A stretch of 63,136 bases of DNA, filler included, from Anaerolineae bacterium (GTDB lineage: Bacteria; Chloroflexota; Anaerolineae; B4-G1; DUEL01): the NCBI GenBank assembly GCA_041082215.1. It is 8 parts of 8 records of this genome, joined end to end, with 100 filler letters (N's around TTAATTAATTAA, not from the genome) between each part and the next. Parts side by side here need not be neighbours in the genome. Positions count along the whole stretch, not along the records: positions 29,332 to 43,890 come from JBDOIF010000075.1; 7 more parts are not named here. One strand, written 5' to 3'. Below the pieces are notes generated by a model, which did no database searches, was not told the DNA's origin, and saw nothing but the letters and a program-made list of their open reading frames with translations. This document shows positions 25,284 to 50,226 of this stretch, piece after piece; position 1 is the stretch's first letter; every line of letters starts with the position of its first letter. The position numbers were made by a program, and so were the translations under genes.

Positions 25284-25464
25284 TCCCTTCGCCTCCGCTG
25301 CGACAGATGGACACTATAACATAGTTGGGCAGAGATGCAAGGAGCAGCGGTCAGGCCGGAGTAGGACCTGAGTCCTGCCGTCGGGGCGTATCCGCTGGCT
25401 CCGCTTCCCGTTATACCTGGTGAGCAGGAAAGTTACGGCAATATTTCAAGAAAGGAGGCACAGC

Positions 25465-26385
25465 ATGCACAGAGGCAAAAAGGTCATCGTCTCTATACTG
25501 GTTCTGACCCTCACCCTGGCACTCACAGCTCCCATCGCCGCCCAGGAGGGTCAGGAAGAGGACATCCCCCCGTGTGCGGGGGAAAGCGTCGCCGGTACAG
25601 TTGTAGCTGTGGATGAGGAGACAGGGACTGTGACGGTTTACACCGGCGCCTCCCTCTGTACGGTGACGCTGGAGGCCGAGTACGATCATCCGATCGTCGC
25701 TCTGCTGGGGATGTATTTCGGCGATATCCACGTCGAGACCCTGGCGGCCGCTCTGGAGGCTACCCAGGGCTGTGCCCTCTACGATGCGACAAGCGACGCG
25801 TGGGCCTGGGCCGACTGTGACGCTGAGGGTGCTGTCCCCATCACGGTAGTCGGCGCAAACCAGGACGGCACATTCACCGCCTCGGCCACTATAGGTGGTG
25901 AAGTGGTCAGCATCACCGTCGCCGTCGAAGACCCGGACGTGGCTGACGGCCTGAACGATGCACTGGCCACCCTCACGGTCACCTGGGAGCTGGATGTGGA
26001 TGGCAGCGTCATCCAGGTCGGCGACCAGATCGCCGCCTATCACGAGGCAGGCCTGGGCTTTGGCGAACTGGTCAAACTGTACGCTATCGCTGCCATCTCA
26101 GGCGTGCCGGTGGAGGAACTGGTCGCCGCTTTTCAGTCCGGGGTCGGTATGGGGGAGCTGTTCAAGGAATATGGCCGCCCCTCCGTGCTTGGAGTGGGCC
26201 ACCTCCGGGATAAAAACGACGGACGGCACGAGCGGGCAGGCAGCCCGCCCGACCACGCCAGCCCGCCTGACCATGCCGGCCCGCCTGACCACGCCGGCCC
26301 ACCCGACCATGCCGGCCCGCCTGACCACGCCGGCCCCTCCGATCACGCCGGGCCGTCGGGTCACCAAGGCTCCAAGAACAAGTGA
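25465..26385 (+). CDS. Secreted acidic hypothetical protein with C-terminal (PPDHAG)n repeats
   Basis: AAGGAGG RBS; signal peptide ending AAQ; 'GLGFGELVKLY'; six PxDHAx repeats (18-bp DNA repeat ~26245-26352). Confidence 0.8.
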   Translation: MHRGKKVIVSILVLTLTLALTAPIAAQEGQEEDIPPCAGESVAGTVVAVDEETGTVTVYTGASLCTVTLEAEYDHPIVALLGMYFGDIHVETLAAALEATQGCALYDATSDAWAWADCDAEGAVPITVVGANQDGTFTASATIGGEVVSITVAVEDPDVADGLNDALATLTVTWELDVDGSVIQVGDQIAAYHEAGLGFGELVKLYAIAAISGVPVEELVAAFQSGVGMGELFKEYGRPSVLGVGHLRDKNDGRHERAGSPPDHASPPDHAGPPDHAGPPDHAGPPDHAGPSDHAGPSGHQGSKNK

Positions 26386-29231: not shown

Positions 29232-29331
29232 NNNNNNNNNNNNNNNNNNNNNNNNNNNNNNNNNNNNNNNNNNNNTTAATTAATTAANNNNNNNNNNNNN
29301 NNNNNNNNNNNNNNNNNNNNNNNNNNNNNNN
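29232..29331. other. Artificial contig spacer
   Basis: N-run with TTAATTAATTAA. Confidence 0.99.
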
Positions 29332-30024
29332 GTGCATCTGTTGGGGGAGGGGGAGCTGCTGGTGGCGCAGCGGGATACCTTCCCGGGCGTGGGGCTGCTC
29401 TCCACGACCTGGCTCACCCCCGGCTTCCGCTGGGCCGACCGATATGTGTTGCAGGTTCCCTCCACAGTCTACGCGCCGGACCTGGCCCGGATCGAGGTGG
29501 GGCTGTACGACGCGACCACGGGGACTCGTCTGCCCGCCAGCACCGGCGGCGACAACGTCCGCTTCGAGCAGGTGGAGGTCCGCGCCCGGCCGGGTGAGGT
29601 CCCCAACCCCATCTCGGTCAACTTCGGCGACCGGATGGCGCTGGTCGGGTACGGGCTGAGCAGCCGGGTGGTGCGGGCTGGTGAGACGGTGACGCTGACC
29701 CTCTACTGGCGTGGGTTGCAGCCGATGGAGGCGGATTACACCGTCTCCGCCCAGTTGGTGGATCCTCAGCAGCGGAAGGCGGCGCAGAACGACGGCTGGC
29801 CCCAGGGGGGAAACGCGCCGACGGCGGCCTGGGAGGTAGGGCAGTTGGTGGCTGATGAGCGGTCGCTGACGGTCTACTCCGATGCCCCGCCGGGAGTCTA
29901 TGACCTGCGGGTGGTGGTGTACCTCCTGCAGGGAGAGCAGATCGTCCGCCTGCCGGTGATTCCGGAGGGGGGGCGGATGCTGAGCGACTACGTGGTTTTG
30001 ACCCGGGTGCGGGTGGTGCCGTGA
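29332..30024 (+). CDS. C-terminal extracytoplasmic Ig-like domains of a GT-C membrane protein (5'-truncated)
   Basis: Repeated 'LVGY..LTLYW..DYTV..L..AQ.D..P..W..G' module shared with neighbours. Confidence 0.75.
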   Translation: MHLLGEGELLVAQRDTFPGVGLLSTTWLTPGFRWADRYVLQVPSTVYAPDLARIEVGLYDATTGTRLPASTGGDNVRFEQVEVRARPGEVPNPISVNFGDRMALVGYGLSSRVVRAGETVTLTLYWRGLQPMEADYTVSAQLVDPQQRKAAQNDGWPQGGNAPTAAWEVGQLVADERSLTVYSDAPPGVYDLRVVVYLLQGEQIVRLPVIPEGGRMLSDYVVLTRVRVVP

Positions 30025-32093
30025 GCCGGCGGGCCTATCTGTGGGGGATGGTCGTTGTGTTGGTGGTGGCGGCGGCCCTGCGGCTGGCCGCCTTCGGAGA
30101 GGTGCCGCCCGGCCTCTACCACGACGAGGCGTTCAATGGACTGGACGCTCTCGACATCTTCCAGGGTCGCCTTGCCCTCTACTTCCCCGCCAACAACGGG
30201 CGGGAGCCGCTCTTCATTTACCTCGTCGCGGCGACGGTGGGCCTCCTGGGGAGAAGCCCCTTCGCCCTGCGGCTGGCCGCTTTCCCCGTGGGTCTGCTCA
30301 CCGTTGCGGCGACGGCGGCGATGGGCCGGGCGCTCTTCTCCCGCCGGGTAGGGCTGCTGGCGGCGGCGGTGCTGGCGGTGACGCTGTGGCACGTCCATCT
30401 GAGCCGGGTGGGATTCCGCGCTGTGCTCATGCCCTTGTTCACTGTCCTCATGGTCTGGCAGGGGGGACTGGGGGTGCGGACGGGCTGGCGGCGCCACTGG
30501 CTGGCAGCAGGTGCCGTGTATGGCCTTTCCTTCTACACCTATACCGCCACCCGCTTCACTCCCGTTGCCCTCGTGGCTTTTGGCCTGTACCTGATCCTTG
30601 TGATGAACCACGGAGCCGCAGAGGACGCAGAGAAATCCAGCTCTAACTTTATGAGACTCCGTGTCCTTTGTGTCTCTGTGGTTTTCTTCCTGTCGGCCCT
30701 GGCAACCCTTGTGCCGTTGCTGGCCTACACGGTAGCCCACCCGGACATCGTGCTGGGCCGACCGGGGCAGGTCTCGATCCTCAACCCGGCGGTCAACGGC
30801 GGGGACCTGTGGGGGACCTTAAGGGTGAATGCGCTGCGGACGGCGGGCATGTTCTTCGTGCGGGGGGACCGCATCTGGCGGCACAACGTCCCCTGGCGGC
30901 CGGTATTCGATCCGGCGCTGGGGGCGGCGTTTGTGGCGGGGCTGGTGGTCGCCGTGCGCCGCGCCCGACGGGACGTGGCGGCTGGCTTCGTGTTGATCTG
31001 GGTGGCGGTGATGGCCCTGCCGACGCTCCTGGCCGAGGACGCGCCCCACTTCCTCCGCGCGGTGGGAGTCCTTCCGGTGGTAGCCCTGCTCCCCGCCCTG
31101 GGGCTGGATTGGGTGATGGGCATAGGGGCCGGCACGGGGTCGGTCCCTGCGGGGTACCGGCTGGGGGCGGTGATCCTCGTGCTCCTGGTCGGCCTGACCT
31201 CCACCGGCCGGGCTTATTTCGGGGATTACGCCCGGGATCCGATGACCGGGTACTGGTTTGAGGAGGGGGCGGCCGCGCTGGCGGGCCGGGTCAACCGGTT
31301 CCTGGGGGTGGGGTGGGATGGGGAGCGGATGGAATGGGGGGAACCCGCCGACCGGCGTGTCTACCTCGATCCGGCACTGTGGGAGAAGTGGCCCCAGGTC
31401 CGCTTCCTGGTCGCTGCGCCGGATGCGGTGACGGTGGGGCTGGAGGGGGAAGCCCCGGCCAGCCCCGTGGCGGTCTTCGTCTGGCCCTATGGGGACTGGC
31501 GGCGGGCCTGGTCGCTTCTGCCCTCCCTGGCGGGGGTAATGGTGGAGGAGGGGCCGCTTTCCCAGGGGGACCGCGATCCCCACCCCTACCTGACCTACCT
31601 GGCCTTCTTCGCCTGCCGGGAGGGGCCTGCCGCGCCGGCGCTGGCCCGTTTCGCCGGAGGGGTGGAGCTGGTCGGTGTGAGCGTGACCTCACCCCCACCC
31701 CTGCCGGGAGGGGGTGGCCCCGAAGGGGCCTGGGGTGAGGGTGAGGTCCGTGTGCGGCTTCGCTGGCGGGTGGCTGCGCCGCCTGGGGGGGAGTACACCG
31801 TCTTTCTGCACTACCTGCGGGATGGGGAGATCATCGCCCAGGGTGATGCTCCCCCTGCAGGCGGCTATTACCCAACGTCCGTCTGGCGGCCCGGCGACGT
31901 GGTGGTAGATGAGCATGGGGTGGCGGGGGTGGGACGGCCCCTCCCTGGCCGCGATGCGCTGCGGATCGGCCTCTGGCGGCCGGAGACGGGGGAGGTATTA
32001 CCCCTGGTCAATGAGGCGGGAGAGGAGATCGGGGATTGGGTCGTCGTGCCGGTGGAGCCAGCGGTCCTGAGCGTCGAGCCGGGGGGGCCGTGA
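30021..32093 (+). CDS. GT-C (PMT/ArnT, GT39/GT83-like) membrane glycosyltransferase
   Basis: 'PPGLYHDEAFNG'; 'NNGREPLF'; many TMs; C-terminal Ig-like module. Confidence 0.82.
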   Translation: MSRRAYLWGMVVVLVVAAALRLAAFGEVPPGLYHDEAFNGLDALDIFQGRLALYFPANNGREPLFIYLVAATVGLLGRSPFALRLAAFPVGLLTVAATAAMGRALFSRRVGLLAAAVLAVTLWHVHLSRVGFRAVLMPLFTVLMVWQGGLGVRTGWRRHWLAAGAVYGLSFYTYTATRFTPVALVAFGLYLILVMNHGAAEDAEKSSSNFMRLRVLCVSVVFFLSALATLVPLLAYTVAHPDIVLGRPGQVSILNPAVNGGDLWGTLRVNALRTAGMFFVRGDRIWRHNVPWRPVFDPALGAAFVAGLVVAVRRARRDVAAGFVLIWVAVMALPTLLAEDAPHFLRAVGVLPVVALLPALGLDWVMGIGAGTGSVPAGYRLGAVILVLLVGLTSTGRAYFGDYARDPMTGYWFEEGAAALAGRVNRFLGVGWDGERMEWGEPADRRVYLDPALWEKWPQVRFLVAAPDAVTVGLEGEAPASPVAVFVWPYGDWRRAWSLLPSLAGVMVEEGPLSQGDRDPHPYLTYLAFFACREGPAAPALARFAGGVELVGVSVTSPPPLPGGGGPEGAWGEGEVRVRLRWRVAAPPGGEYTVFLHYLRDGEIIAQGDAPPAGGYYPTSVWRPGDVVVDEHGVAGVGRPLPGRDALRIGLWRPETGEVLPLVNEAGEEIGDWVVVPVEPAVLSVEPGGP
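30607..30684. repeat. In-frame inverted ~9-mer element (AACCACGGAG...CTCTGTGGTT)
   Basis: Terminal inverted arms within a loop of the 30021 gene; related arms near 47211-47240 and 57201-57261. Confidence 0.6.
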
Positions 32094-35000
32094 TGGGCTG
32101 GAGAGCGCTGGCTACCCGTCGGTCCGCTGCGGCGGCTTGGGGGTCGCTGGTGCTGGTGGCGCTTCTGGCCGCTGCGCCGGTCTGGGGGCCGGGGATCGTC
32201 AACACGCGGGGTGGGGGGGATAGCCCTTTCCTCGTGCAAAGGGCGCACCAGATGCTGGTCAACCTGCGGGCCGGCGTCTTCCCCGTCCGCTGGATGCCCG
32301 ACGCAGCCTACGGGCTGGGCTACCCCTTCTTCAGTTACTACGCCGCACTTCCTTACTACCTGACCGGGCTGCTGGCGCTGGTGGGGTTCGACCTTCTGAC
32401 CGCGCTGAAGGCCGTGCAGACGGCGGGGTTCGTGGCGGCGGCGCTGGCGATGTACGGCTGGATGCAGGGGGTGAGCCGGAGCCGGTGGGGAGCCTGGCTG
32501 ACCGCGGTCGCCTACACTGTGGCCCCGTTTCACCTGGTCAACGTCTATGTCCGGGGGGACTCCCTCTCTGAGTTCTACGCCTTTGCCTTCTACCCGCTGG
32601 TCCTCTGGACACTGGACAGGCGGTCTGAGGTGCAGAGAGCGGGGTCCTGGATCCCCGCCGCGCTGGCGTATGCGGGTCTTGTACTTACCCACAACATCTC
32701 TGCCCTGATCTTCACCCCCTTTGTCATCCTCTACCTTGTGATGCGGTGGCTGGGGAGGGAACTGGACCGCCAGTCATTGCTCATTGGTCATTGGTCATTG
32801 CTCTTGGGCCTGCTGCTTTCCGCCTGGTTCTGGCTCCCGGCGCTGGCGGAGAGCGGACAGGTGCAGTTGGGGACGGTGACGGGCGGCTATTTCCACTACT
32901 CCCGCCACTTCCGCGCTGCCGATCTTATTCAGCGCAGCCTCCTTTTCGATTACAGCATCACCCCGGATGGAGGCACACCCTTTGCGATGGGACTGGTGCA
33001 GGCGGTCTTTGCCGGGCTGGGGGGCGGGGTGCTGGCGATAGAGGGATTCCGACGACGGCTGGGGACGCGGTGGGGGTTTGTCCTCTTCGGCCTGGTTCTT
33101 TCCACGCTGATGATCACCCCCCTTTCGAAACCTCTCTGGGACCATCTGCCGCTTCTTCCGATGGTCCAGTTCCCATGGCGGTTCCTCTCCGTCCAGGCCC
33201 TTTTTACCGCGGCGGCGACGGGGCGGGTTGCAGATTACAGATGGCGAGTCGCAGGTCGCAACGGTCACGGCTCATTGGTCATCCCGGTCGCAGCCCTGCT
33301 GTCCGCGTCGGTTCTCCTCCCCCTTCATCCTGACCGCCTTCCCATCGGCCCCGCTGACGTGACGGTCGAGCGGCTACAGCTCTACGAACTGTTCACCGGC
33401 AACATCGGCACCACCATCCGTTACGAATACCTCGACCGGTCTGTGGTCCCCCGTCCCTTCACCTCCAACGCGCTCATCGAGCCGGATGCTCTACCCCAGG
33501 CCATCCCTCTGGAGGGAGCTGCGCTGGAGGCGGCTCTGGTGGAGCGACGCCCCACGGAGCAGGTCTGGCGAGTGTGGGGGGAGGGTGGGGGGATTGCCTT
33601 CCCGCTCCTCTACTGGCCCGGCTGGGGGGCCCGGGTGGATGGGGAGCTGGTGGCTGTGCGGCCTGTGGAGGGCTCCGGCTATCTGGCGCTGGAGGTGGGG
33701 CCGGGGGAGCACACCGTCGTCCTGCGGCTGGACCGCACGCCAGTTCGGGTTGTAGCGGAAGCCGTGTCTCTGGTCAGCCTTGCCGGCCTTCTGGTGGTCC
33801 TTGTCTGGCGTCGCTGGTTGCCGGCTGCTCGTTGCCTGTTACTGGTTGCTGGTTGCTCGTTGCTGGCCTTTCCTCTCTCAGCCAGCAACGAGCAACGAGT
33901 AACCAGTTGGTTTTCCTCTCCTCGAGCCATCCCCCCCACCGTTGCCAGCCTCACGATGGACTTCGAGCAGATGCCCTATCTGCACCCCAATCCCGATGGG
34001 GTGGACTTCGGGGGTGGGGTGCGGTTGGGGGGGTATCGGCTGTCGGCGGAGCGGCTGGCTCCGGGCGATTGGCTGACCGTTGCGCTGGACTGGGTGGAGG
34101 CGGCGGAGGGATACACGGCGACGGTCCGCCTGGTCTCTTCGGCTGCCGTGCGGTACGAGGTGGAGCCGCTGGCCGAGGCTGGCTGCAGGGTGGGGGCGGA
34201 GGAGTGTGGCGCTCTCACCCTCCAGCTGCCCGGCGACATACCGCGCGGCATCTACCTGCTCCAACTGCGCCTCTTTGGCCCTGGGGGGGAAGTGCACGCC
34301 CGCACGCCGCAGGGGAGGACGGAGGGGGTCCTGTATCTGGCCCCGGTGCGGGTAGTACAGGGTCCGCTGCTTGCGCCCGACGCGCCGCTTCTGGGCCCCT
34401 TCGGGCCGGACGTGTGGCTGCATGGGGTGACGGTCGCCCAGACGACCCCCGACCGGCTCTCGGTGCGGCTGGTCTGGTCGGCCCGGCGCCCCCTGGCGGC
34501 CAACTACGGCGTCTCGTTGCGGCTGGTGAATGGCGAAGGGGAAGTGGTGGCGACGCTGGACACCCAGCCCGGCTACGGCTTCCTTCCCACCAGCCTCTGG
34601 CGGCCCGGAGAGCAGGTAACGGACCGCTATCTCCTGGAACTGCCCGCCGACCTTTCCCCCGGTGACTATCGGCTGTGGCTGGTCCTCTATCAGATTCCCA
34701 CCCTGGAGCCGGTGGGTGAGGTCCGACTGGGGCCGTTCCCCCTGCCGCTGGCGGCTCCCTTCGAGGCGCGGCCGCCGGAGCGGGCCTTCGCCCTGCCGCC
34801 GCTGGAGCATCCTCTGGGGGTGGACTTCGGCATGGAGATACGGCTGGCCGGTTACGGGCTGGAGCGGGAGGCCGACGGGCTCCGGCTGACCCTGTGGTGG
34901 CAGGCGCTGGAGGCTCCCCTGGCCGACTACACCGTTTTCGTCCACCTCTTCGATCCGGAGACACAGGCCATCGTCGTCCAGAGCGATGCGATGCCGCGGG

Positions 35001-35317
35001 GCGGGGCCTATCCGACTTCGTGGTGGGCGGCGGGTGAGGTGGTCAGCGAGACGGTGACGCTTTCCCTGGAGGGGGTGGGGCCGGGCACGTATCGGCTGGC
35101 AGTGGGGCTATATGACCGCACTCTGACGCGGCTCCAGGCCGCTGGCCCGGATGGGGTGCGGCTGCCAGATGACCGGTTGGTCCTGCCGGTGGAGGTGGGG
35201 GTTGGGCCGTGGAGGAAGTCGTTGCTTTTCGAAGGGCGTTGTGATAGAATAAAAACTGCACCGAGCGTTTCCTTCCCCCTGAGAGCAAAGGAGGAGAGCG
35301 ATGCCGGGGAAAATTAG
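32093..35317 (+). CDS. PTPS-related/YfhO-like GT-C membrane protein with multiple C-terminal Ig-like modules
   Basis: 'RWMPDAAYGLGYPFFSYY'; 'RGDSLSE'; 'LTHN'; 'QFPWRF'; three C-terminal modules; last ~35 aa look like read-through. Confidence 0.82.
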   Translation: MGWRALATRRSAAAAWGSLVLVALLAAAPVWGPGIVNTRGGGDSPFLVQRAHQMLVNLRAGVFPVRWMPDAAYGLGYPFFSYYAALPYYLTGLLALVGFDLLTALKAVQTAGFVAAALAMYGWMQGVSRSRWGAWLTAVAYTVAPFHLVNVYVRGDSLSEFYAFAFYPLVLWTLDRRSEVQRAGSWIPAALAYAGLVLTHNISALIFTPFVILYLVMRWLGRELDRQSLLIGHWSLLLGLLLSAWFWLPALAESGQVQLGTVTGGYFHYSRHFRAADLIQRSLLFDYSITPDGGTPFAMGLVQAVFAGLGGGVLAIEGFRRRLGTRWGFVLFGLVLSTLMITPLSKPLWDHLPLLPMVQFPWRFLSVQALFTAAATGRVADYRWRVAGRNGHGSLVIPVAALLSASVLLPLHPDRLPIGPADVTVERLQLYELFTGNIGTTIRYEYLDRSVVPRPFTSNALIEPDALPQAIPLEGAALEAALVERRPTEQVWRVWGEGGGIAFPLLYWPGWGARVDGELVAVRPVEGSGYLALEVGPGEHTVVLRLDRTPVRVVAEAVSLVSLAGLLVVLVWRRWLPAARCLLLVAGCSLLAFPLSASNEQRVTSWFSSPRAIPPTVASLTMDFEQMPYLHPNPDGVDFGGGVRLGGYRLSAERLAPGDWLTVALDWVEAAEGYTATVRLVSSAAVRYEVEPLAEAGCRVGAEECGALTLQLPGDIPRGIYLLQLRLFGPGGEVHARTPQGRTEGVLYLAPVRVVQGPLLAPDAPLLGPFGPDVWLHGVTVAQTTPDRLSVRLVWSARRPLAANYGVSLRLVNGEGEVVATLDTQPGYGFLPTSLWRPGEQVTDRYLLELPADLSPGDYRLWLVLYQIPTLEPVGEVRLGPFPLPLAAPFEARPPERAFALPPLEHPLGVDFGMEIRLAGYGLEREADGLRLTLWWQALEAPLADYTVFVHLFDPETQAIVVQSDAMPRGGAYPTSWWAAGEVVSETVTLSLEGVGPGTYRLAVGLYDRTLTRLQAAGPDGVRLPDDRLVLPVEVGVGPWRKSLLFEGRCDRIKTAPSVSFPLRAKEESDAGEN
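35222..35250 (+). promoter_or_regulatory. Candidate sigma70 promoter of the NTPase cluster
   Basis: TTGCTT-17 bp-TAGAAT with extended TG (TGaTAGAAT), 50 nt upstream of 35301 (AAGGAGG RBS). Confidence 0.6.
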
Positions 35318-37112
35318 GGGGCGGGCGAGGCGATTGTTGAGGCGATGGGGACTTCCCCTGAATGTGATCCTGCTGGCGCTCCCTTTGCTTGTCTTCTGGC
35401 TGCTCGTCGCCCTTGGGCTCTTCTTTATCTCCCTGGGCCTGCTTTGTTTGCTCGGTGTTCAGACCGCTGATAAGGAAGTGAGCGCACTGGTGGGCATGCT
35501 GATCGCTACTGCTATCGGGTTTGCCGTGCAGCAGTGGAACACTCTGGATCAGGCGGAAAAAGAAAGGCGCGATCTGCGACAGAGGGCGCTGGAGGAGATC
35601 GAGGGGCTGAGGGAGAGCCTGCGGTCAGGGGACTATGCCCATGCTCTCTCGCTGTATCAGGCTTTTCGGAAGAGACTGGTGTGGGGGGCATGGCAGGAAT
35701 TGGAGGTTGAGCAGGCTCTGGAGAACGCCTGGCTGGCAGCGCCCTCGCCGCTGAGGGTGTGGGCGGACCTGTGCGAAGGGCTGAAGGGACTGAAGAGTAA
35801 CTGGGAATGTATCGAGGCGCTCGTATGGGCCTGGCGGCTTGGGGAGGACAAGGCCGGGCAGAAGTTGGATGAGGTGATCTCAGGGGAAACGCTCTGCCAG
35901 GTAAGCGAGGTCCTGCAGAGTGACCCAGCGGGTGTGCTGCTCTTGCGCAGTCCGGCTATTGGCCGGAGGTTGGACGCTCTAAGGGGGAAGGAGCTGAGCG
36001 CGGAACAAAAGAAGTGCCTGGAGGATCTGACCACGCTACGACAGCGGCCGGTCCGGCTGCCCCTGCCCTGGCGTGGGGCGGAGCGGCCTCCCGATCCGAG
36101 GGAGATCCGTGAGGCAGTAGAGAGATTGGGGCTTCAAGATAATCCGTTCGGGCCGGAACAGGCCGAGCTGGACCCGCGTCTCAAAGACTATGGAATCTGG
36201 CCCCGCTCTCTGGACCAGGCACGAGGGCCCCGGCCGGCTCTGGTGTTCGGTCCTTCGGGCTCCGGCAAGACGGCGGCGGCTTTGCTCCTGACCCTCAAGT
36301 GTCTTTCCCCGCCTGCAAGTCCTGAGGAAGGGAACGTTTTCCCGGTGTGGCTGGGGCCTGTGGTCGAAGCCTGGCCTGAAGCCAGTGCAGGCTGGCTGGA
36401 GCTTATCGGCCGGGCCCTGGCAGAGGCGTTGCTCCAGGTTAGTGCGCTGGACCCCTATGCCCTCTTCGAACAGGAAGCGGGAGTGGCGTCGGCGATCGCT
36501 TTCCTGCTTTCCAAGGTTTTCGGAGCAGGTGCGCTCGACCAGCATCTGCGAAGGGCGGGCCTCCAGGATGGGGCCCGGCATTACGTTCTGAGCGAGATTC
36601 GGAGGTGGGCTGGGGAGCTTGCCTCGGAGACCCATCTGGACGAATACACTTCTCTTGACCTGATCGGCAAGGCACGGCCCGCCGAACTGGCGTGCACCTA
36701 CGTATTCCTTGATCTCCCAAACGGGCTTCGCGTGAGGAGTCCATCTACGGCTGCTTCTCTGGCTTCTTTACTGGAGATGGGGCTGCCGCTGGCGTCCAGA
36801 GGGGTGTACCTGAAGGTGTTTCTGCCGGAGTGTCTGCAAGGGGACCTCGCCGGATTCTGGTTTGAGGAGCCGCTCTCCCTTACCTGGCAGGGGGATGAAC
36901 TGAGCGAGATGTTGTCCAGGCGGCTGCATATGGTCGGGTTGGATAGCCTGGCGCAGATTTGCGACTCACCGGCGCGCCGCCTCGACCCCGATCAGCAGCT
37001 TGTCCACGCTGCTGGCGGATTGCCCCGGGAGCTGGTGCGCCTGGGGAATCAGATGCTGGCGAGTGCGCGGGGTGAGCGGCTCACACCGGGGGACTTGCCA
37101 CAGGTGAGGTGA
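35301..37112 (+). CDS. Membrane-anchored P-loop NTPase (paralog A)
   Basis: 2-3 N-terminal TMs; helical region; 'LGLQDNPFGPEQAELDPRL'; Walker A GPSGSGKT; degenerate Walker B YVFLDL; KVFLP; GLPR. Confidence 0.8.
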   Translation: MPGKIRGRARRLLRRWGLPLNVILLALPLLVFWLLVALGLFFISLGLLCLLGVQTADKEVSALVGMLIATAIGFAVQQWNTLDQAEKERRDLRQRALEEIEGLRESLRSGDYAHALSLYQAFRKRLVWGAWQELEVEQALENAWLAAPSPLRVWADLCEGLKGLKSNWECIEALVWAWRLGEDKAGQKLDEVISGETLCQVSEVLQSDPAGVLLLRSPAIGRRLDALRGKELSAEQKKCLEDLTTLRQRPVRLPLPWRGAERPPDPREIREAVERLGLQDNPFGPEQAELDPRLKDYGIWPRSLDQARGPRPALVFGPSGSGKTAAALLLTLKCLSPPASPEEGNVFPVWLGPVVEAWPEASAGWLELIGRALAEALLQVSALDPYALFEQEAGVASAIAFLLSKVFGAGALDQHLRRAGLQDGARHYVLSEIRRWAGELASETHLDEYTSLDLIGKARPAELACTYVFLDLPNGLRVRSPSTAASLASLLEMGLPLASRGVYLKVFLPECLQGDLAGFWFEEPLSLTWQGDELSEMLSRRLHMVGLDSLAQICDSPARRLDPDQQLVHAAGGLPRELVRLGNQMLASARGERLTPGDLPQVR

Positions 37113-37113
37113 C

Positions 37114-38508
37114 GTGTTGAAGGGGCAGGTTCAGGCTCCCGGGCTGGCTGTTTTCGGCAGCCTGCGGGCAGACGACGAGCCCTGGCTGGCGGAGTGCTTT
37201 GTCCCGCCGGATGATTTCAGGCTGATGGAGGAGGAAGGCTCCATCGCCGTCTTTGGCCCCCCCGGTTCCGGGAAGTCGGCCGTTCGGGAGATGCTGGTCA
37301 GGCGATGCCGGGAAGTTTCGGAAGGCCGTCGGCGTCGCCTGATCGCCTGCTGGCGGTTTGACCCGCTCGCTCTTGGGCCGAGCCTGGGCCCCCGTTCCCT
37401 CCCCGGGCAGGTGGCTGGTGTCCTCGATTCCTGCGCTATGGCTGTGCTGGAGTATGTGGCTGCCTGTCCTTCGGAATGGGGCAATGCTCCAGAGTGGGTG
37501 CGCAGGTATCTCACCTGGTTTGTCCGCCGCTTCGCACAGGGGGACATCGTCAGTCGGGCAGGCTATTTGCTGGAGGAGGAGAGAGGGACTGGTTCGGATA
37601 TTGTGGCCCAGCTTCTCCGCGCCGAGATCGAACAGGACCCGGTGCCACCTCACAACTGGCCTCAGGTCGCTGCTGAACTGGCCAAAGCGCTGGTCCGCCT
37701 TGGGCTGGGAGGGGTTTGGGTGGTGGTGGACGGGCTGGAGCCGTGGGTGGAGGCTCAGTTCGACCAGGTGGTCTCTTCATTGAGCGCCCTTTTTTCCGCC
37801 CTTCCGCTGTTTGAGCAGGCCGCGTTTGCATATAAAGTGTTCCTCCCCTCGGTCCTTCAGCCCGGTCTGGCGGCCGCCGCCGGGGTGGAGCGGAGTCGGA
37901 TCCAGCCCTATTCGCTTGTCTGGCGGGAGGAGCAACTGGTCGAGATGGTGGAGCGCAGGATCGCCGTGGCACTCGGCAGACCGCGGTTTGCTTTGTCGGA
38001 GCTGTGCTCCGCTGCGGGCCTGCTGGAGTGGCTGAGGCGAGGGGGAGGAAATCGCCCCCGGGCCTGGCTGGAGCTGATCCGCCCGCTGGTGACCCGATAC
38101 ATATCCGACCGGCGGGAGCAGCCGATCAAGGAGGATGAGTGGAAAGAGCTGCGCCGTCAGGCTCCCCCGCGCCTTTTCCTGGACGAGGTGAACCGACGGG
38201 TGGTTGTGGGAGGACGGGAGGTCAGCATCGAGGAGATGACCAGCGGCGGATACCGGCTTTTCCGCTATCTTTACAAAAATGCCGGACGGGTTGTGCCGTG
38301 GGACGAGCTGTACTATCGGGGTTACCGCGGCATGGACCGCCAGCCTCTCGCGGTGGGAGATGAAGGTTATGAAGCCCCGACCTCTTACGAGGGCGTCCTC
38401 TACAGCAGAATCTCCGACGTCCGCAAGGCGATCGAGCCGGACCCTGAGGACCCGCTTTACCTGGATACGGTCCGGGGCGAAGGGGTTGTCCTGAGGCTGG
38501 GATGGTGA
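37114..38508 (+). CDS. P-loop NTPase with C-terminal OmpR-type winged-helix DNA-binding domain (paralog B)
   Basis: GPPGSGKS; VWVVVDGLE; KVFLP; C-terminus 'YRLFRYLYKNAGRVV..L...ISDVRKAIEPDPEDPLYLDTVRGEG'; start codon GTG/TTG uncertain. Confidence 0.85.
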   Translation: MLKGQVQAPGLAVFGSLRADDEPWLAECFVPPDDFRLMEEEGSIAVFGPPGSGKSAVREMLVRRCREVSEGRRRRLIACWRFDPLALGPSLGPRSLPGQVAGVLDSCAMAVLEYVAACPSEWGNAPEWVRRYLTWFVRRFAQGDIVSRAGYLLEEERGTGSDIVAQLLRAEIEQDPVPPHNWPQVAAELAKALVRLGLGGVWVVVDGLEPWVEAQFDQVVSSLSALFSALPLFEQAAFAYKVFLPSVLQPGLAAAAGVERSRIQPYSLVWREEQLVEMVERRIAVALGRPRFALSELCSAAGLLEWLRRGGGNRPRAWLELIRPLVTRYISDRREQPIKEDEWKELRRQAPPRLFLDEVNRRVVVGGREVSIEEMTSGGYRLFRYLYKNAGRVVPWDELYYRGYRGMDRQPLAVGDEGYEAPTSYEGVLYSRISDVRKAIEPDPEDPLYLDTVRGEGVVLRLGW

Positions 38509-38549
38509 TCAACCCGGGTTGTGAGGTTGTTGTTAGAAATTCTGGAGAT

Positions 38550-38600
38550 GATTAACAGGCAATTGGCAGAGAATCAGGAAGCAGTCAGGGTAGAATTAAG
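38550..38600. promoter_or_regulatory. Five 11-bp-phased direct repeats (candidate wHTH operator)
   Basis: GATTAAC (38550), AATTGGC (38561), AATCAGG (38572), AGTCAGG (38583), AATTAAG (38594). Confidence 0.45.
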
Positions 38601-38664
38601 AGCGTCCTGGACGTAAAGCATGGGGGGCGAGTTTTGTTTCTTTTGCAAGAGGGGTTATCTATAA

Positions 38665-39903
38665 ATGTCCGTTCTGAGAGGGACGACCGACAGATCGTCC
38701 ACATGTGGCGGGAGTGAGGAGGGCGAGGGCGAAAAGGAACGAAGGTGGCTGAGGGAAGAGCTGGGGTTACGGTTTGATCCGTTCCGGCATCTGGATGCCG
38801 GGGCGGACCCTTATCTTCCTGCTTATCTCATTGATCACGATGCTTTTATAGATCTGTGGGGAGATTGGCCTTCGTTTCTTTTCGCCCCCGCGGGCGGGGG
38901 AAAAACTGCCTTCCGGGTGCGTCTTGCTCGGGCCTGCAGGGTGGAGCAGGACGGTCGCCGGATACTCCCCGTAGTTTTTTATCCTCCCCGACCGTCTCCT
39001 GAGGGCACAGTCCCTGAAGAACCCGCCTACTTCGAAGCTCTCCTGCAGGGTATCGGGGCCGCGCTTCTCCTCCAACTGGCCTACATGCCGGATCGTTTCC
39101 TGGAGCTTTCGGAAACCCTGCGAGGAAGGGTACGTACAGCTCTGGAGCACAATTTCCCCGGTTCCCTGGACTACTATCTTGCCCAGCTAGAAGATGCAGG
39201 CTCGCTGGCCCCCCTCGCCCAGGCTTTTGATCGGACGGCTGCAGGGGCGCCCGGTGGGTCGCCCCTTCCAGCCGAGCCTTCGGCTGGCCGGATCCGGACC
39301 CTCTGCGCAGGGATCCGGGAAGCCCCGGTCGGAAACGGCCTGCCGCAAGCAGCCGAGGAGCGCCTTCGCTGGTTGATCGAACTGCTGAAGGATGGGCTGG
39401 GATATGAGAGCATTTACCTGCTTGTAGATGGGGTGGATGCATACGTACAGGACCCCTCCTTCGCCCTCCGCCTTCTCCAACCCCTGCTGGATCGGTTACA
39501 GGCCTGGTCGGAACAGGCCTTTTTTGTCAAATTTTTCCTGCCGACGGAATTACGCCCTCTCCTGGAAGGAAAGTTACAAAACCTATTGACATCACGACCG
39601 AAAGTCACTATAATAAAGTGGGATGAAAGGATGCTGGTCCGGGTGATCCGGGAGCGCCTCTACCTGGCCAGCGACGGGATGTACGACAGCCTGGAGGCGA
39701 TTTCGACCAGGGATGTCGGTGGTCAAATAGAAGAACGGCTGGCAGAGATCGTGCGTCCCCCACTGCCCCGGCAGATCCTCTATCTCACCCAGCGGGTGTT
39801 TGTCGAGCATATGAAGCGGGTAGGACCCTATGGTCGTCTGGAAAGCCAGGATTTCGCGGCGGCTCAGGAGTGGTATAGGGGCCAAAGAGGAGCAGGGAGC
39901 TAA
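38665..39903 (+). CDS. Stand-alone P-loop NTPase (paralog C)
   Basis: 'LGLRFDPFRHLDAGADPYL'; APAGGGKT; IYLLVDGVD; KFFLP; PLPR. Confidence 0.82.
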   Translation: MSVLRGTTDRSSTCGGSEEGEGEKERRWLREELGLRFDPFRHLDAGADPYLPAYLIDHDAFIDLWGDWPSFLFAPAGGGKTAFRVRLARACRVEQDGRRILPVVFYPPRPSPEGTVPEEPAYFEALLQGIGAALLLQLAYMPDRFLELSETLRGRVRTALEHNFPGSLDYYLAQLEDAGSLAPLAQAFDRTAAGAPGGSPLPAEPSAGRIRTLCAGIREAPVGNGLPQAAEERLRWLIELLKDGLGYESIYLLVDGVDAYVQDPSFALRLLQPLLDRLQAWSEQAFFVKFFLPTELRPLLEGKLQNLLTSRPKVTIIKWDERMLVRVIRERLYLASDGMYDSLEAISTRDVGGQIEERLAEIVRPPLPRQILYLTQRVFVEHMKRVGPYGRLESQDFAAAQEWYRGQRGAGS

Positions 39904-39961
39904 ATCACAGGCACTGAGTGGTTATGATTGGTTCTGTCTTCAGTTTCAGTGGCCCGAGTGC

Positions 39962-40019
39962 GAGGGTGTCAAGTTAGTAGGGGCGCAGCGCACTGCGCCC
40001 CTACTAACTTGACACCCTC
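39962..40019. repeat. Perfect 27-bp-stem palindrome containing GTAG-REP core
   Basis: GAGGGTGTCAAGTTAGTAGGGGCGCAG-CGCA-exact reverse complement. Confidence 0.92.
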
Positions 40020-40040
40020 TTCGTTTCTGGGGGTAGAGCG

Positions 40041-41165
40041 ATGGCAGACCCATTGATACCATCTTATCACAAAGATTATTTCGTGGACCGTGAGGGGGAG
40101 GTCTCCCGGGTGCATGAAAAGGTCCAGCGCCTGTTAAAAGGCGAGAGGCCCCATCTCCCTCACACTCTTTTCTACGGCCCCCGCGGGAGAGGCAAATCCT
40201 GGCTCCTGCGTTACCTGGCCTGCTATCTGCAAGAGAAGGAAGAATTCCAGAACAGGGTCCGGGTCCTGTACCTGGTTCTGGTGCGGGGTGAATCGGCCGC
40301 CGGAGAAGGACCGGCCGGAACGCTGGAGCTGGAGGCGGCGAAGGCGAACGCCGATCCGGAGGCCGCGGTCGGCCGGGTCCTGAGTAAGGCTTTAGAGCAG
40401 TTGGGGCTTTCGCCTGTCCCCAGGGTAGATTTGGCTCAGGCAAGCGCGTGGCTGGTAGAGCGGGTTCGGGAGGGTAAGCCCCTGGTTGTGCTCGTGGACG
40501 GGCTGGATGAGGCCTCCCCCTCGCTTCTGGGGTGCCTGGAATCCTACTATCTCGCCGTTCTGGCCAAAGAAACTAACGTCCTCCTCATCCTGGGCAGCCG
40601 CGTCCCGCGCCCTCAGGGGTACACGTGGAGGATGATGGAACTCAGGTATAAAGTAGAGGAGTTCCAGCTCGAGTCGTTTGATAAGAAACAAACAGAAGAG
40701 CAATTGCAGAAGTTGCGGGTGGACCCGTCCGTGGCCGATGAAGTGGGGGAGGCCGGAGAGGGCAATCCCCTCAGCAATGCGGTGCTGGGGAAACTGTGGA
40801 AGAAAGATAAGGCCGAGGCGCTTCAGCGTTGCGCTGAAGAGCTGCTGGACGGTGTGGATGAGGAACTGCGCGGCTATTTCTGGGCCCTCTGTCCTCTGCC
40901 CGCTGTCTATGAAGAGCAGATGCCTCCTCTGCTGGCTGCCTACTTTGGGAAAGATCCGTCGGTCTGGAGCTTCCAGAGCTGCCGGCGCATTCTGCAGGAT
41001 ATGGTGGCGACACGCCTGACACGATGGCAGGCAGGTGAGGGGTATGTGATGGACCCGGCCGTTCGGTCGGTGCTGACAAGGGCGCTGCAGGAAAACGATC
41101 CGCCGCGCTGGGAGAAGTTGAAGCAGGCTTCTGTAGGACAAGCTTCAGCTTGTCCTACAATCTGA
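40041..41165 (+). CDS. Short STAND-class (AAA_16/NB-ARC-like) NTPase
   Basis: FVDREGE; GPRGRGKS; VVLVDGLDE; LILGSR sensor; GNPL motif; no sensor repeats. Confidence 0.82.
   Translation: MADPLIPSYHKDYFVDREGEVSRVHEKVQRLLKGERPHLPHTLFYGPRGRGKSWLLRYLACYLQEKEEFQNRVRVLYLVLVRGESAAGEGPAGTLELEAAKANADPEAAVGRVLSKALEQLGLSPVPRVDLAQASAWLVERVREGKPLVVLVDGLDEASPSLLGCLESYYLAVLAKETNVLLILGSRVPRPQGYTWRMMELRYKVEEFQLESFDKKQTEEQLQKLRVDPSVADEVGEAGEGNPLSNAVLGKLWKKDKAEALQRCAEELLDGVDEELRGYFWALCPLPAVYEEQMPPLLAAYFGKDPSVWSFQSCRRILQDMVATRLTRWQAGEGYVMDPAVRSVLTRALQENDPPRWEKLKQASVGQASACPTI
41132..41159. repeat. GTAG-type palindrome forming the 3' end of the 40041 gene
   Basis: TGTAGGACAAGC-TTCA-GCTTGTCCTACA. Confidence 0.8.
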
Positions 41166-41187
41166 GGGCGCAGGGCAGGAGGTAGCG

Positions 41188-43890
41188 ATGAGAATGCCCA
41201 GTTTTCTGGCCGAGTATGCAGGCGCGCTGGTGACCGCCGATGTGGTCGGTCGTCAGGATGTTCTGGAGGAGATCCGTCAGGCTATAGAGGGGGAAGGGAC
41301 CCGGGTCTTCTACCTGGTGGGGCAGGGAGGCATTGGCAAGACCTGCCTGGTGCGGGCGGTGTTGCGGCGATGCCAGCCGGGCGACGAGCAGGAGAGCCGG
41401 CCCGCAGGGGAATGGTACCGCGATGGCCTCATTGCTGCCTCGCCCGACCTTCTGGTAGACCTGTATCACACGACGACGCATACCCGCGAGGGGCTGGCCC
41501 GCGCGCTGCGGGAGAGCCTGGCCGGCGCGAAGGGGGCTTTTCAGCAGTTTGATGCGGCTTATGAGGAGTGGGAGAAGAAGAAGTTCGACCTGGCGGGAAT
41601 GCTGAAGGAGCTCTCGCAATTGCGGGACCGGGTGAGCGAGGCTTTTCTGGATGACCTGAAGGCCCTTGCCCGGGAGCGCCGGGTGGTGATCGCGCTGGAT
41701 ACGGCCGAGCGGCTGTTATACGGAGAGGACGAGATCCAGCGGCGGCTCGGCCTGGAGCCGGAAGAGGTGGACGCGCTCGACTGGCTGCGGCAGATCCTAC
41801 CTCAGCTCGAGAATGTGGTTCTCCTCATCGCCGGGCGGCCCGAACCCCGGCGGCTACGGGAGGAATTAGAATCCATTTTGCAGGACCGGCTGGTCGTTAG
41901 GGAGCTGAAGAGCCTCGATCTGGAGGGCACAAAAGCCTACTTCCAGGCGGTGGCGGCGAGGGCGCAGAAGCTGGGGATGGATGACGTGGCAGGACAGGTC
42001 GAGGCCATCCCCGAGGACATCCGCCAGGTGATCTGGAAATACACTGGGGGCCGGCCGATCCTGCTGGCGCTGATGATTGACTACCTGCTCGTGTCCGATG
42101 AACTGTTACCACGGGTCAAAGAGCCGGTGGAGCAGGTATGGGAGCGCGAGGAGAAGGAGCTGGAGGCTATTCGGGAGGAGGTGGAGCGGGAACTGGTCCG
42201 CTTCTGGCAGGAATCGGGTCGGGAGGCAGACCAGGCCATCATCGCCCTGGCCTGGGCCCCCAAGGGGATGGATGCGGAGCTTCTGGCGCGGGTGGCCGAG
42301 TTAAGGCGTGACGATGGAGAATGGGATATCGAGCGCGCCCAGGAGTGGCTGGATGAGATCCGCAACCTTTCCTTCATCAAAGTCCGCCCGGCCGATGAGC
42401 GGGTGTTTCTCCACGACGAGATGTACGCCCTCTTCCAGAAGCACGTGCTGTCCATTGTGCCGGAGGTGCGCAGGGAGCGTGTGTATGGGGCGATTCTGGA
42501 TTATTACAGGGGTCGCATCACCCCCATGCGCCAGCGCGTTTGTGAGCTCTCCCAGCCCCGACGGGCGGATGAGCAGAGGGTGGAGCTGGGGGTGCCCCGG
42601 CCCCCGGACGATCCGGCGGCGCTGGCACGGGCCACGGCACGGCTGTGGATGTTGATGGCGGAGGAGGTTTATTACCGCCTGCGGTATGAGCCGGTAGATG
42701 GTTATAAGACCTACTCGAGCTATGTGAAAGAGGCTTACTGGAGTCATGAGGATGCTTTGGAACGGCTTCTACGTACCGAGTTGCTGGATTTTCGAAAGCA
42801 CTGGGAAGACAGAGGGTTCCCTGGAAAACTTCAAAGGGCAGTCGTTGATATAGGCGCCGGATTGCGACGGGTGGAGCGACTGAGGAGAGACTTCAAGTTT
42901 GACGAGGCTGTTTCGCTAGCCAGGGATATAAGGCAAAAGTGTTCCGATCTACTAAAAGAGGCAGGTACGCTGACAGAGATAGAACTCAGGGTACTGGAAG
43001 GGGAGATTCAAACCTATCAGGGTAGGAAGGAAAAGTTGGAGCGAGTTGGAGCGCTCCTTGAAGAGAGTATCAAGAAGGTTAGCGATTTTCGTCCAGGGGA
43101 TGAATTTGAGGAGTGGCGGCGCCAGGTGCTGCTGGCCGAGGCCTACAATGTGCTGGGGTACTACTACCGTAATCTGGGTCAATTCCGTAAAGCTGTGGAG
43201 GCTTACAGGCAGGCAGTGGCACAGTGGCGTCTGCTTGAACAAAAGGAGCGGGATCCGCTCCGGCGGATGGCGCTGCGGGCCCAGCACGCCAACACACTGA
43301 ACAACCTCTCCTGGGCGCTGGCAGAGCAGGGCCGCCTTGCGGAGGCCGGCCATCTCTGCGAAGACGCGCTGGAGATGCGGGTTGCGCTGGGGCCGGCCGG
43401 CCCTGTCGCCTTCAGCCTCAACACCTACGGCCTGGTCCTGGTGCGGGATGATAAGCCCCACCGGGCGCGGGTGATGACCAGCCGCGCCATGGGGATCTTC
43501 CGCAATCTGGATTACCCCCGGGGGATCGGGCTTGCCAGCATCGCTCTGGCAGAAGCGCTGCGGCGGATGAGCGCGATCGAGTACCTTTACGCCCCTGAGG
43601 AGAAGGCTGACCTGCTCCATCAGGCGGCTCGATACGCCAATGAGGCGGTGGAGATCTTCGGCGGTCCTCAGGTGCGGGAGCGCTCCCGCCTGATCGAGGC
43701 GCTCATCGAACGGGGATGCGTCTACCGCCAGTGGGCGTGGCTCCGGCCGCAGTATGAGGCGGAGAAAGATCCGCCCCAGGAGGAGCTGGCCCGACAGTCC
43801 GAAGAGGACCTGCGGCGAGCGATGGAGGAGGCCGGCGAGGAGATGGCCTACCGGCGGCTGGACGCGCATGTGAACCTGGCCTGGCTTTAC
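41188..43890 (+). CDS. STAND NTPase with C-terminal TPR repeats (3'-truncated)
   Basis: VVGRQD; GQGGIGKT; VIALDTAE; IAGR; TGGRP; LHD motif; TPR-like 'AYNVLGYYYRNLGQFRKAVEAYRQA' and 'ANTLNNLSWALAEQGRLAEA'. Confidence 0.88.
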
Positions 43891-43990
43891 NNNNNNNNNN
43901 NNNNNNNNNNNNNNNNNNNNNNNNNNNNNNNNNNTTAATTAATTAANNNNNNNNNNNNNNNNNNNNNNNNNNNNNNNNNNNNNNNNNNNN
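43891..43990. other. Artificial contig spacer
   Basis: N-run with TTAATTAATTAA. Confidence 0.99.
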
Positions 43991-44989
43991 GCCGTTCTCG
44001 TTGACCCGCGCCGTCTCGGTGAGGACGTTGATCTGCTCCAGGCCGTGGCGCAGGCCGATTTCGTAGTCGGTGGGGTCGTGGGCCGGGGTCACTTTGACCG
44101 CGCCGGTCCCGAAGGCCGGGTCCACGGCCTCATCGGCAATGATGGGGATGCGACGGCCCAGGGCCGGGAGGACGGCCGTCTTCCCGACCAGGTCCCGGTA
44201 CCGTTCATCCTCGGGGTGGACAGCGACAGCGGTATCGCCCAGGATGGTCTCCGGGCGGGTGGTGGCGACCTGGATGAAGCGAGTGGCTCCCTCTGCCCAA
44301 CGGCCGCTGCCCCATTCGGCGGTCGGGCCAGACCAGTTTTCGTCTATGAGGGGATAGCGGACGGTCCACAGGTGGCCGGCTTCCTCCTGATGGATGTTCT
44401 CCAGGTCGGAGATGGCGGTGGTGCAGCGGGGACACCAGTTCACCATATACTTGCCCCGGTAGATCAGGCCCTTCTTGTAGAGGCGAACGAAGGCGGTGCG
44501 GACCGCGCGGGAGAGGTCAGGATCCATGGTGAAGCGCTCCCGCGTCCAGTCGCAGGAGACGCCCAGGTGCTTGTGCTGCTGGGTGATGATGGCGCGGTGC
44601 TTCTGGGCCCACTCCCAGCAGCGCTGGACGAATCGCTCCCGGCCCAGGTCGTGGCGGGTGAGGCCCTCTTTGCGCAGGTCCCGCTCCACGACGTTCTGGG
44701 TGGCAATCCCAGCGTGGTCGGTGCCGGGGAGGAAGAGGGTATCGTAGCCGCGCATGCGGTAGTAGCGGGTCTGGAGGTCCTCCACGGCGGCGGTCATGGC
44801 GTGGCCCAGGTGGAGGACGCCGGTCACGTTGGGCGGGGGCATAGTGATACAGAAGCGGGGACCATCGGGAGAGGCCAGTCCCCTTTCGAGCTGTGTCTCC
44901 GGGCGGAAGTAGCCCTGCTCCTCCCACCATCGGTACAGCCGTTCCTCGATCTCCTGGAATTGGTAGATTGGGGCCAGTTTTTCGGTCAT
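43991..44989 (-). CDS. valS: Valine--tRNA ligase, N-terminal part (3'-truncated)
   Basis: PPPNVTGVLHLGHA; PGTDHAGIATQ; VATTRPET; GTGAVKVTPAHD. Confidence 0.96.
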
Positions 44990-48221: not shown

Positions 48222-48321
48222 NNNNNNNNNNNNNNNNNNNNNNNNNNNNNNNNNNNNNNNNNNNNTTAATTAATTAANNNNNNNNNNNNNNNNNNNNNNN
48301 NNNNNNNNNNNNNNNNNNNNN
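48222..48321. other. Artificial contig spacer
   Basis: N-run with TTAATTAATTAA. Confidence 0.99.
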
Positions 48322-50126: not shown

Positions 50127-50226
50127 NNNNNNNNNNNNNNNNNNNNNNNNNNNNNNNNNNNNNNNNNNNNTTAATTAATTAANNNNNNNNNNNNNNNNNN
50201 NNNNNNNNNNNNNNNNNNNNNNNNNN
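50127..50226. other. Artificial contig spacer
   Basis: N-run with TTAATTAATTAA. Confidence 0.99.

Follow-up and report, generated by a model that had tools for sequence, protein, structure and literature searches.

A conserved Chloroflexota gene cluster pairing STAND ATPases with a radical SAM/SPASM enzyme: a possible NLR-like conflict system

The DNA analysed here, referred to as the window, is a stretch of 63,136 nucleotides from an Anaerolineae bacterium of the phylum Chloroflexota (assembly GCA_041082215.1), in which eight contigs are chained by N44-TTAATTAATTAA-N44 spacers. One of them (window positions 29332-43890, contig C3 of the genome G000, which comprises 3.53 Mb in 174 contigs and is 96% complete) carries five open reading frames (ORFs) on the plus strand, here called A to E, with gaps of 1, 156, 137 and 22 nucleotides between successive ORFs (Table 1). 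The initial annotation had described five co-directional genes for nucleoside triphosphatases (NTPases) at this place, and both the genes and all five Walker A motifs quoted there were recovered in the translations. Its domain labels, namely a membrane anchor on A, a winged helix on B, a bare ATPase for C, a short STAND ATPase for D and a STAND ATPase with TPR for E, are supported by Pfam, and E indeed runs into the contig end at 43890. The missing part was found in the same genome: the 147 nucleotides at the end of C3 are exactly the first 147 nucleotides of contig C43 (2835 nucleotides), so the two contigs join. On C43 (locus L134) the last 154 codons of E are followed by a GNAT frame (G), a radical SAM/SPASM gene (F) and the start of a SWIM-like frame. 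The initial annotation had seen no effector and had cautioned that the contig ended inside the last gene; that the operon continues with a GNAT and a radical SAM/SPASM gene had not been foreseen. Genes A to E are the front part of a conserved, undescribed gene system of Chloroflexota.

Table 1. Positions of the genes, candidate signals and spacers (window coordinates unless a contig is named).
Feature	Position	Strand	Description
A	35301..37112	+	603 aa, membrane-anchored AAA+ ATPase, Walker A GPSGSGKT
B	37114..38508	+	464 aa, AAA+ ATPase with C-terminal OmpR/PhoB-type winged helix, Walker A GPPGSGKS
C	38665..39903	+	412 aa, ATPase module alone, Walker A APAGGGKT
D	40041..41165	+	374 aa, short STAND-type ATPase, Walker A GPRGRGKS
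E	41188..43890 (contig end)	+	first 901 codons, STAND with C-terminal TPR, Walker A GQGGIGKT
E, remainder	G000 contig C43 (L134), bases 1-612		~154 codons
G	contig C43, between end of E and F		GNAT acetyltransferase
F	contig C43 (L134), 1049-2392		radical SAM/SPASM, 447 aa in the window genome, ~500 aa in orthologues
SWIM-like frame after F	contig C43 (L134), 2551-2835, open at contig end		CxC...CxH pattern judged by eye
Candidate promoter of A	35221..35249	+	TTGCTT-17-TAGAAT with TG extension, read by eye
Candidate internal promoter for D-E-G-F	39586..39614	+	perfect TTGACA-17-TATAAT inside C, ~430 nt before D
Palindrome	39965..40018		C-D spacer, ~25-bp stem, REP-like (repetitive extragenic palindromic) element
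Spacers between contigs	6720-6819, 29232-29331, 43891-43990, 48222-48321, 50127-50226, 56262-56361, 59955-60054		

Relatives of B were searched for in 401 sampled genomes of the class (E ≤1e-10), and relatives of F in the same class and in a phylum-wide sample of 401 genomes. Twenty loci were fetched via B and 30 more via F (20 and 10), and their genes were called by profile hidden Markov models on stop-to-stop frames. Orthologues of B occur in 46 of the 401 class genomes, scattered over many families, and the order A-B-C-D-E-(G)-F was found in all 20 loci fetched through B (B and E are present in every one, C, D and F in 19 each, A in 18 and G in 12). The orthologous proteins share 22-49% identity with those of the window (tblastn). 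The four genes on each side vary by locus and are mostly housekeeping genes, and the upstream neighbours in the window, a PMT_2 glycosyltransferase-like protein and a PTPS_related membrane protein, are not kept with the cluster elsewhere. A looser contig scan with the B alignment was discarded: the 80 loci kept matched B from residue 274 onward only (chiefly the winged helix), and none of the 80 held two or more genes of the system. It is very improbable that the genes are ordinary housekeeping or regulatory ATPases that became neighbours by chance, an explanation already contradicted by the gene order, which is maintained in numerous families of the class as well as outside it, in other classes. 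The matches to named families are all weak or generic and the neighbours are housekeeping genes, as such an explanation would have it; since only 46 (B) or 62 (F) of the 401 class genomes carry the system, it cannot be essential.

The constant core of this system is E together with F, usually preceded by D. Orthologues of F were found in 62 of the 401 class genomes and in 41 of the 401 genomes of the phylum sample, including families of other classes. Of the 34 genomes with a strong B match, F is present in 30; of the remaining four, two are less than 90% complete and fragmented, in another the contig ends just before the place of F, and the last holds a short divergent F. Conversely, a B match is lacking in 29 of the 62 F-bearing genomes. 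E adjoins F in 45 of the 50 fetched loci (19/20, 17/20 and 9/10 by group), with two convergent arrangements in the last group, and two of the misses in the F-fetched loci are short pieces. Reduced forms of the system were seen as A-C-D-E-F, A-D-E-F, A-E-F, D-E-F and E-F. As A-B-C never occurs without D-E in the fetched loci, while D-E-F occurs alone, A, B and C represent an accessory module.

Both constant ATPases have the marks of STAND proteins. D matches AAA_16 from residue 14 with 32.5 bits (cut-off 32.6), NACHT with an E value of 2e-4, and also ATPase_2 and NPHP3_N; neither a sensor nor an effector domain was recognised in the window's D. For E, the matches are AAA_16 from residue 19 (35.0 bits), TPR_10 (E 3e-11) and TPR_12 (E 9e-9). 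Orthologues of E are 984-1095 residues long, with one form of 1504 residues, and conserve a Walker A motif, a Walker B motif of the form hhhhD-T-x-E, a G-R-P motif and an L-H-D-E motif, a pattern that we take to be reminiscent of AP-ATPase/NB-ARC proteins. The Walker A motif is canonical in 16 of 17 orthologues of D and in 20 of 21 orthologues of E. A complex prediction with residues 540-1026 of E and with F, both from locus L126 and with 14-row alignments, gave a score of 0.00, a value that argues neither way on their binding.

The other constant member, F, carries both the CxxxCxxC motif of radical SAM enzymes and the seven-cysteine pattern of SPASM domains. In 17 aligned sequences C104, C108 and C111 of the former and C337, C355, C392, C395, C401 and C405 of the latter are invariant, and C423 is nearly so. 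Pfam recognises Radical_SAM in the orthologues with E values of 1e-13 to 2e-18 and SPASM in one of five scanned. The best named models are those of peptide maturases (nif11-type, PapB, QhpD and SCIFF), all of which score far below their cut-offs. Compared with solved structures, the F profile matches best 5WGG/5WHY (E 2.4e-43), with an entry title on thioether bond formation in sactipeptide biosynthesis; the match starts at chain residue 20, so that the N-terminal domain is covered. The protein is CteB, the thioether-forming SCIFF maturase, which has an RRE. In a Foldseek search with F, 5WHY (CteB), TigE, anSME, ChlB, SkfB, PqqE and SuiB rank above viperins, with the best template modelling (TM) scores being 0.6-0.7. 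The model of the L126 orthologue (mean predicted local distance difference test, pLDDT, of 77) shows strands followed by helices at residues 67-132, which resemble an RRE. As a separate observation, contig C84 of G000 harbours at ~64.8-73.5 kb three more radical SAM/SPASM-like paralogues (~450 residues) on one strand within 9 kb, which are possibly an ordinary peptide-maturation cluster.

In front of the RRE-like domain, F has a tail that is disordered in the L126 model (residues 16-61, pLDDT <50) and that contains a sharply conserved motif, (Glu/Gln)-x-Asp-Cys-Ala-Cys-(Ala/Pro). A motif of this DCAC type is present in 40 of 49 F orthologues, in 19 of them in at least two copies, and the number of copies ranges from one to four or more. 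In the F of locus L149 (oriented 15162-16952) four to five tandem units of the type Gln-Cys-Asp-Cys-Asn-Cys-Asp-Cys-Ala-Cys follow each other. In a six-frame translation of the window genome the DCAC motif occurs in F alone, twice. A separate precursor gene was looked for without success: no conserved small ORF was found among the intergenic ORFs of 20 loci, and when 1959 small intergenic ORFs from the 50 loci and the window contig were clustered, no family occurred in more than three loci, those few being antisense to F. It is possible that the cysteine units bind a metal or a cluster. However, the variable number of cysteine-rich units and the position of a flexible tail before an RRE-like domain make a fused substrate likelier than a fixed metal site.

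The accessory genes A, B and C are, as judged from their sequences, paralogues within one little-known AAA+ family. In BLASTP, B and C share 25% identity over 349 residues (E 1.6e-11), A matches each of the two with an E value of ~1e-6, and hhalign relates C to the B orthologues with a probability of 99.5% (E 2.4e-23, 310 columns); profile comparison of C with E yields the P-loop alone in common. A begins with hydrophobic residues 16-56, followed by ~200 residues without any family match and by an ATPase module from ~280 onward with a weak AAA_16 match; C, too, has no more than weak P-loop matches in Pfam. The winged helix of B matches Trans_reg_C of Pfam with 27.8 bits (cut-off 26.2; E 2.7e-6), the profile of the B orthologues matches over residues 354-462 the solved DNA-binding domains of RegX3, RstA, WalR and OmpR, and 31 relatives of B bear source names of winged-helix proteins of Anaerolineae or Chloroflexota. 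The best named families for all three, below threshold in each case, are the NCBIfam models DS41_1_antiphage (NF053860; A 34.6, B 55.1 and C 65.5 bits, cut-off 370) and ATPase_Sll1717 (NF047389; A 29.6, B 64.7 over model positions 1-355, and C 46.1 bits, cut-off 75). A search of the whole genome with the latter model matched only A, B and C, none above the cut-off. In C the Walker A and Walker B motifs are separated by a helical insertion. The AlphaFold2 model of C is confident (pLDDT 89, predicted TM score 0.87), and its best Foldseek matches are HslU, BrxC and subunits of ORC, a loose resemblance with TM scores of 0.33-0.40. The nearest named clusters of the ESM Atlas are BrxC_BrxD or KAP_NTPase, which serve as a lead only. 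At E ≤1e-30 the C profile found 372 cluster representatives among 1.84 billion, and it has no match below E 0.5 among solved structures by sequence. The Walker A motif is canonical in 16 of 16 orthologues of C and in 18 of 21 of B; for A a GK[ST] is found in only 5 of 14. In eight of the 14 (L115, L116, L117, L120, L123, L124, L125 and L133) the Walker A lysine is replaced by arginine or histidine, so that A is often likely a non-hydrolysing member; the window's own A retains the lysine.

For the transcription of the cluster, the initial annotation had assumed a sigma-70-like promoter of its own. A consensus scan of positions 34600-35300 detected no such site upstream of A, and the claim stands only as far as the candidate read by eye, which falls inside the 3′ end of the upstream ORF 32036-35317; a GGAGG is located 8 nucleotides before the ATG of A. 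In a scan of positions 34600-43890 the sole match to the sigma-70 consensus is the site inside C. In 8 of 20 loci a site with at least 10 of 12 matching positions precedes the D frame by 310-440 nucleotides, by eye at the same place in C. The codons that form this site are minor ones in the genes of the contig (TTG 51 of 632 leucine, ACA 16 of 142 threonine and ATA 16 of 120 isoleucine codons). The site in C would fit a separate transcript of D-E-G-F. The palindrome between C and D has a GC-rich core that turns up again on at least eight further contigs.

Such a transcript would also fit the idea that A-B-C, as a DS-41-like unit, and D-E-(G)-F are two independent systems that happen to be neighbours. 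D-E-F is indeed found without A-B-C in many loci, and DS-41 ('AAA2') acts, according to the DefensePredictor study (PMC13092281), as a single-gene anti-phage system in E. coli. Nevertheless, A-B-C was never found apart from D-E in the fetched loci, E lies downstream on the same strand in 20 of 20 B-fetched loci even where protein identity falls to ~25%, and A, B and C are the only Sll1717-like genes of the genome. The intermediate forms A-C-D-E-F, A-D-E-F and A-E-F suggest gain and loss of genes within one system, and we regard a pair of independent systems as improbable.

Several relatives of the cluster carry domains that are known from biological conflicts, which occur in reduced forms of the system, within or next to it, and on its strand. 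In locus L144 the gene in the position of D encodes a fusion of SIR2_2 and AAA_16 (745 residues, E 2e-28), the SIR2 part of which is ThsA-like according to PADLOC (E 9.5e-32). In L150 a protein with TIR_2 and EAD7 (51.8 bits for EAD7) precedes a D-position ATPase that itself starts with an EAD7 (32.6 bits, cut-off 32). Exactly such a pairing of EADs is described by Kaur et al. (2020; PMC7159879) as a means of recruiting effectors. L150 is the only locus in which the core NTPase and a neighbouring effector protein were seen to share an EAD; the window's D has none. In loci L161 and L162 D is preceded by a SIR2_2 gene, and F is followed by the gene for a PNP_UDP_1 protein with a match to the PADLOC 'Effector' model of the PN superfamily. 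A HEPN gene is found in L139, and in L149 E is preceded by a Peptidase_C25-like gene; NYN-domain genes come after F in four loci, and SPFH/Band-7 genes lie nearby in five. Regarding the surroundings of single loci, in L161 and L162, which belong to one family, the SIR2 gene, D, E, F and the PNP-type nucleosidase come immediately after ftsA and ftsZ. In L140 the system is closely preceded by the genes for a SWIM protein and a DpdE/ZorD-like SNF2 helicase, and the repeated translated units at positions 225-3816 of L168 (FNPPCGLVAFST and similar) indicate a CRISPR array ~6.5 kb upstream of D-E-F.

The best explanation, held at about even odds, is that the cluster is a modular, NLR-like conflict or immune system of Chloroflexota with a radical SAM partner, of which the window contains an accessory-rich version. 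The conflict role would probably be anti-phage or cell-suicide. The candidate NTPase defence system of the initial annotation is thereby kept in part: the genes form a conserved unit, relatives of which carry SIR2, TIR-EAD7, PNP, HEPN and NYN domains, while a core of E and F, with A to C being dispensable, had not been anticipated. In a possible mechanism E would detect a trigger via its TPR part and would assemble with ATP. D would be a helper, which in other lineages would bring the killing domain either by fusion to SIR2 or by recruiting TIR via EAD7 pairing. F would serve as the dedicated enzymatic partner of E and would cross-link a cysteine-rich peptide, most simply its own tail, thereby making or arming a signal or a toxin, and A, B and C might contribute a membrane arm and a transcriptional arm. 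The relay from a sensor to membrane and transcriptional outputs that the initial annotation had proposed is hypothetical. A more specific version, in which the radical SAM/SPASM enzyme is governed by an NLR-like STAND sensor and brings along its substrate as the DCAC repeats of the tail, the cross-linking is the immune signal or weapon, sensor and helper STANDs split the work as in plant NLR pairs and up to three DS-41-like ATPases are added output arms, is rather doubtful as a whole.

The main rival to a conflict role is a non-immune circuit for peptide signalling or regulation, which is possible, if unlikely on the present evidence. In such a circuit F would mature a cysteine-rich peptide that E binds via its TPR part in the way of pheromone receptors, B would switch genes, A would be a membrane sensor or exporter, and the whole would control development or secondary metabolism in filamentous Chloroflexota. 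An OmpR-like winged helix, an NB-ARC ATPase and TPR repeats are found together in AfsR-type regulators. The grouping of F with maturases of proteins and of ribosomally synthesised and post-translationally modified peptides (RiPPs) agrees with a signalling role, as do the GNAT gene beside F in 12 of 20 loci, the OmpR-type DNA-binding domain on B, the conservation of the TPR part of E to the same degree as the ATPase part and the mostly housekeeping flanks. Yet none of the genes that are kept with the system encodes a precursor, a protease or an exporter. The SIR2-D fusion, the EAD7-paired TIR protein, the PNP-type nucleosidase, HEPN and NYN of the relatives are hallmarks of conflict and not of pheromone circuits, and the patchy distribution, with two or three copies in some genomes, also speaks for the former.

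Several results weigh against an NLR-like conflict system. The window's version has no recognised killing domain, and the evidence for effectors comes from divergent relatives. Defence genes are few among the neighbours in the 50 loci, with one each of a type I restriction-modification system, a type IIG/DrmMI-like gene, PDC-S01, a DpdE/ZorD-like SNF2 gene and a CRISPR array, and most neighbours are housekeeping genes such as those for tRNA synthetases, ftsA/ftsZ and penicillin-binding proteins. On viral contigs, the F alignment picked up no relatives. In E the TPR part is not more variable than the ATPase part, both having an identity of 0.28-0.43 per 50-residue bin; this equal conservation speaks against the TPR part as a diversifying sensor, and it would also fit a conserved internal ligand. 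Concerning F, five of the 49 orthologues are without any Cys-X-Cys motif in the tail and four more have only HCAC or DCDC. In the F of the window genome itself ~63 residues are missing, namely those making up the RRE-like domain of the closest relative among the fetched loci; both Asp-Cys-Ala-Cys motifs are kept, and this copy may work differently or be impaired. The gap of ~63 residues is either a real deletion or an artefact of the assembly. Two contig sets labelled as metatranscriptomes gave only 6 and 7 short pieces (150-270 nucleotides), which touch B, D and E and do not amount to evidence for expression; two raw-read metatranscriptomes gave 0 reads, a result without weight either way.

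That the architecture does not belong to a named system, as had been suspected, is in agreement with the database searches, in which the best PADLOC match for A to E has an E value of 2.5e-4 and all NCBIfam matches lie far below their cut-offs. In the literature no description of the system was found; related loci may be contained in the gene-neighbourhood source data behind the figures of Kaur et al. (2020), which lay outside the search. Nothing was found on 'Sll1717', and the only relevant paper on radical SAM/SPASM together with STAND/NACHT proteins is that of Kaur et al. (2020; PMC7159879), in two text supplementary files of which the term 'SPASM' is absent. According to that paper, a radical SAM/SPASM peptide-processing module in actinobacterial vWA-MoxR ternary conflict systems is always accompanied by a TPR-bearing AP-ATPase. 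These systems (VMAP-ternary, FxSxx-COOH/FxsB type) are the nearest described ones: they share the pairing of radical SAM/SPASM and STAND-TPR proteins, the use of TIR or other effectors partly via EADs and filamentous or multicellular hosts. In contrast to them, no vWA-MoxR pair, VMAP, zincin-like peptidase or FxSxx-type precursor was seen among the scanned neighbours in the 50 loci. MoxR was absent from these neighbours altogether, and a single VWA_2 protein is encoded on the opposite strand in L153 only. With TIGR04269, the model of FxsB, F reaches 57.3 and 63.3 bits (cut-off 370), and E matches no Fxs model. In the present system, furthermore, the enzyme itself seemingly carries the cysteine-rich peptide, and there are as many as three additional AAA+ ATPases.

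Avs and other bacterial NLR-like anti-phage proteins consist of a STAND ATPase with a sensor part. E likewise has a STAND module with C-terminal repeats as a sensor, and the partner STAND of the relatives carries SIR2 or recruits TIR. Unlike in Avs, there is no N-terminal effector on E or D, the sensor-type STAND (E) and the short STAND (D) seem to split the work, and a radical SAM enzyme is the invariant partner. The best PADLOC match of E is PDC-M16A (E 0.0019 over 40 residues). With neither a fused effector nor a model match, E is not an Avs by the tests made.

Membership in DS-41, Sll1717, SCIFF and viperin families was considered and rejected in all cases, with scores below the curated cut-offs. 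DS-41 is a single gene, whereas here three paralogues with transmembrane or winged-helix additions lie always upstream of D-E-F. The likeness of F to CteB extends from the N-terminal domain over the radical SAM core to the complete set of SPASM cysteines; F differs from the SCIFF maturases in its score of 103.5 bits on TIGR03974 (cut-off 425), in its own DCAC-repeat tail and in that no SCIFF precursor was found. Prokaryotic viperins (pVip) match F weakly over the radical SAM core (54.3 and 58.5 bits on NF038283, cut-off 180), but the SPASM and RRE-like domains of F are characteristic of enzymes that modify peptides or proteins, and viperin structures rank far below those of maturases. With BrxC, C has a likeness at the level of the fold only (Foldseek E ~1e-3, TM 0.38-0.39), HslU and ORC score alike, and no BREX model matched A to E.

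As to the remainder of the window, the spacers are contig joins, and an ORF that reaches into one is a truncated gene, for instance the minus-strand frame at 43943-44989, which resembles a valyl-tRNA synthetase. In another contig of the window, the ORF 25420-26385 ends in tandem Pro-Pro-Asp-His-Ala-Gly repeats.

To our knowledge, viperins, which modify nucleotides, are the only radical SAM enzymes so far known in defence, and we know of little work on the defence repertoire of Chloroflexota. If the proposed conflict role is true, a radical SAM enzyme that cross-links peptides or proteins would be a new enzymatic partner in NLR-like bacterial immunity, and F would be a rare case of a RiPP-type maturase with a substrate motif fused to its own N-terminus. 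The series from E-F over D-E-F to A-B-C-D-E-G-F could show how sensor and helper STANDs and DS-41-like ATPases combine.

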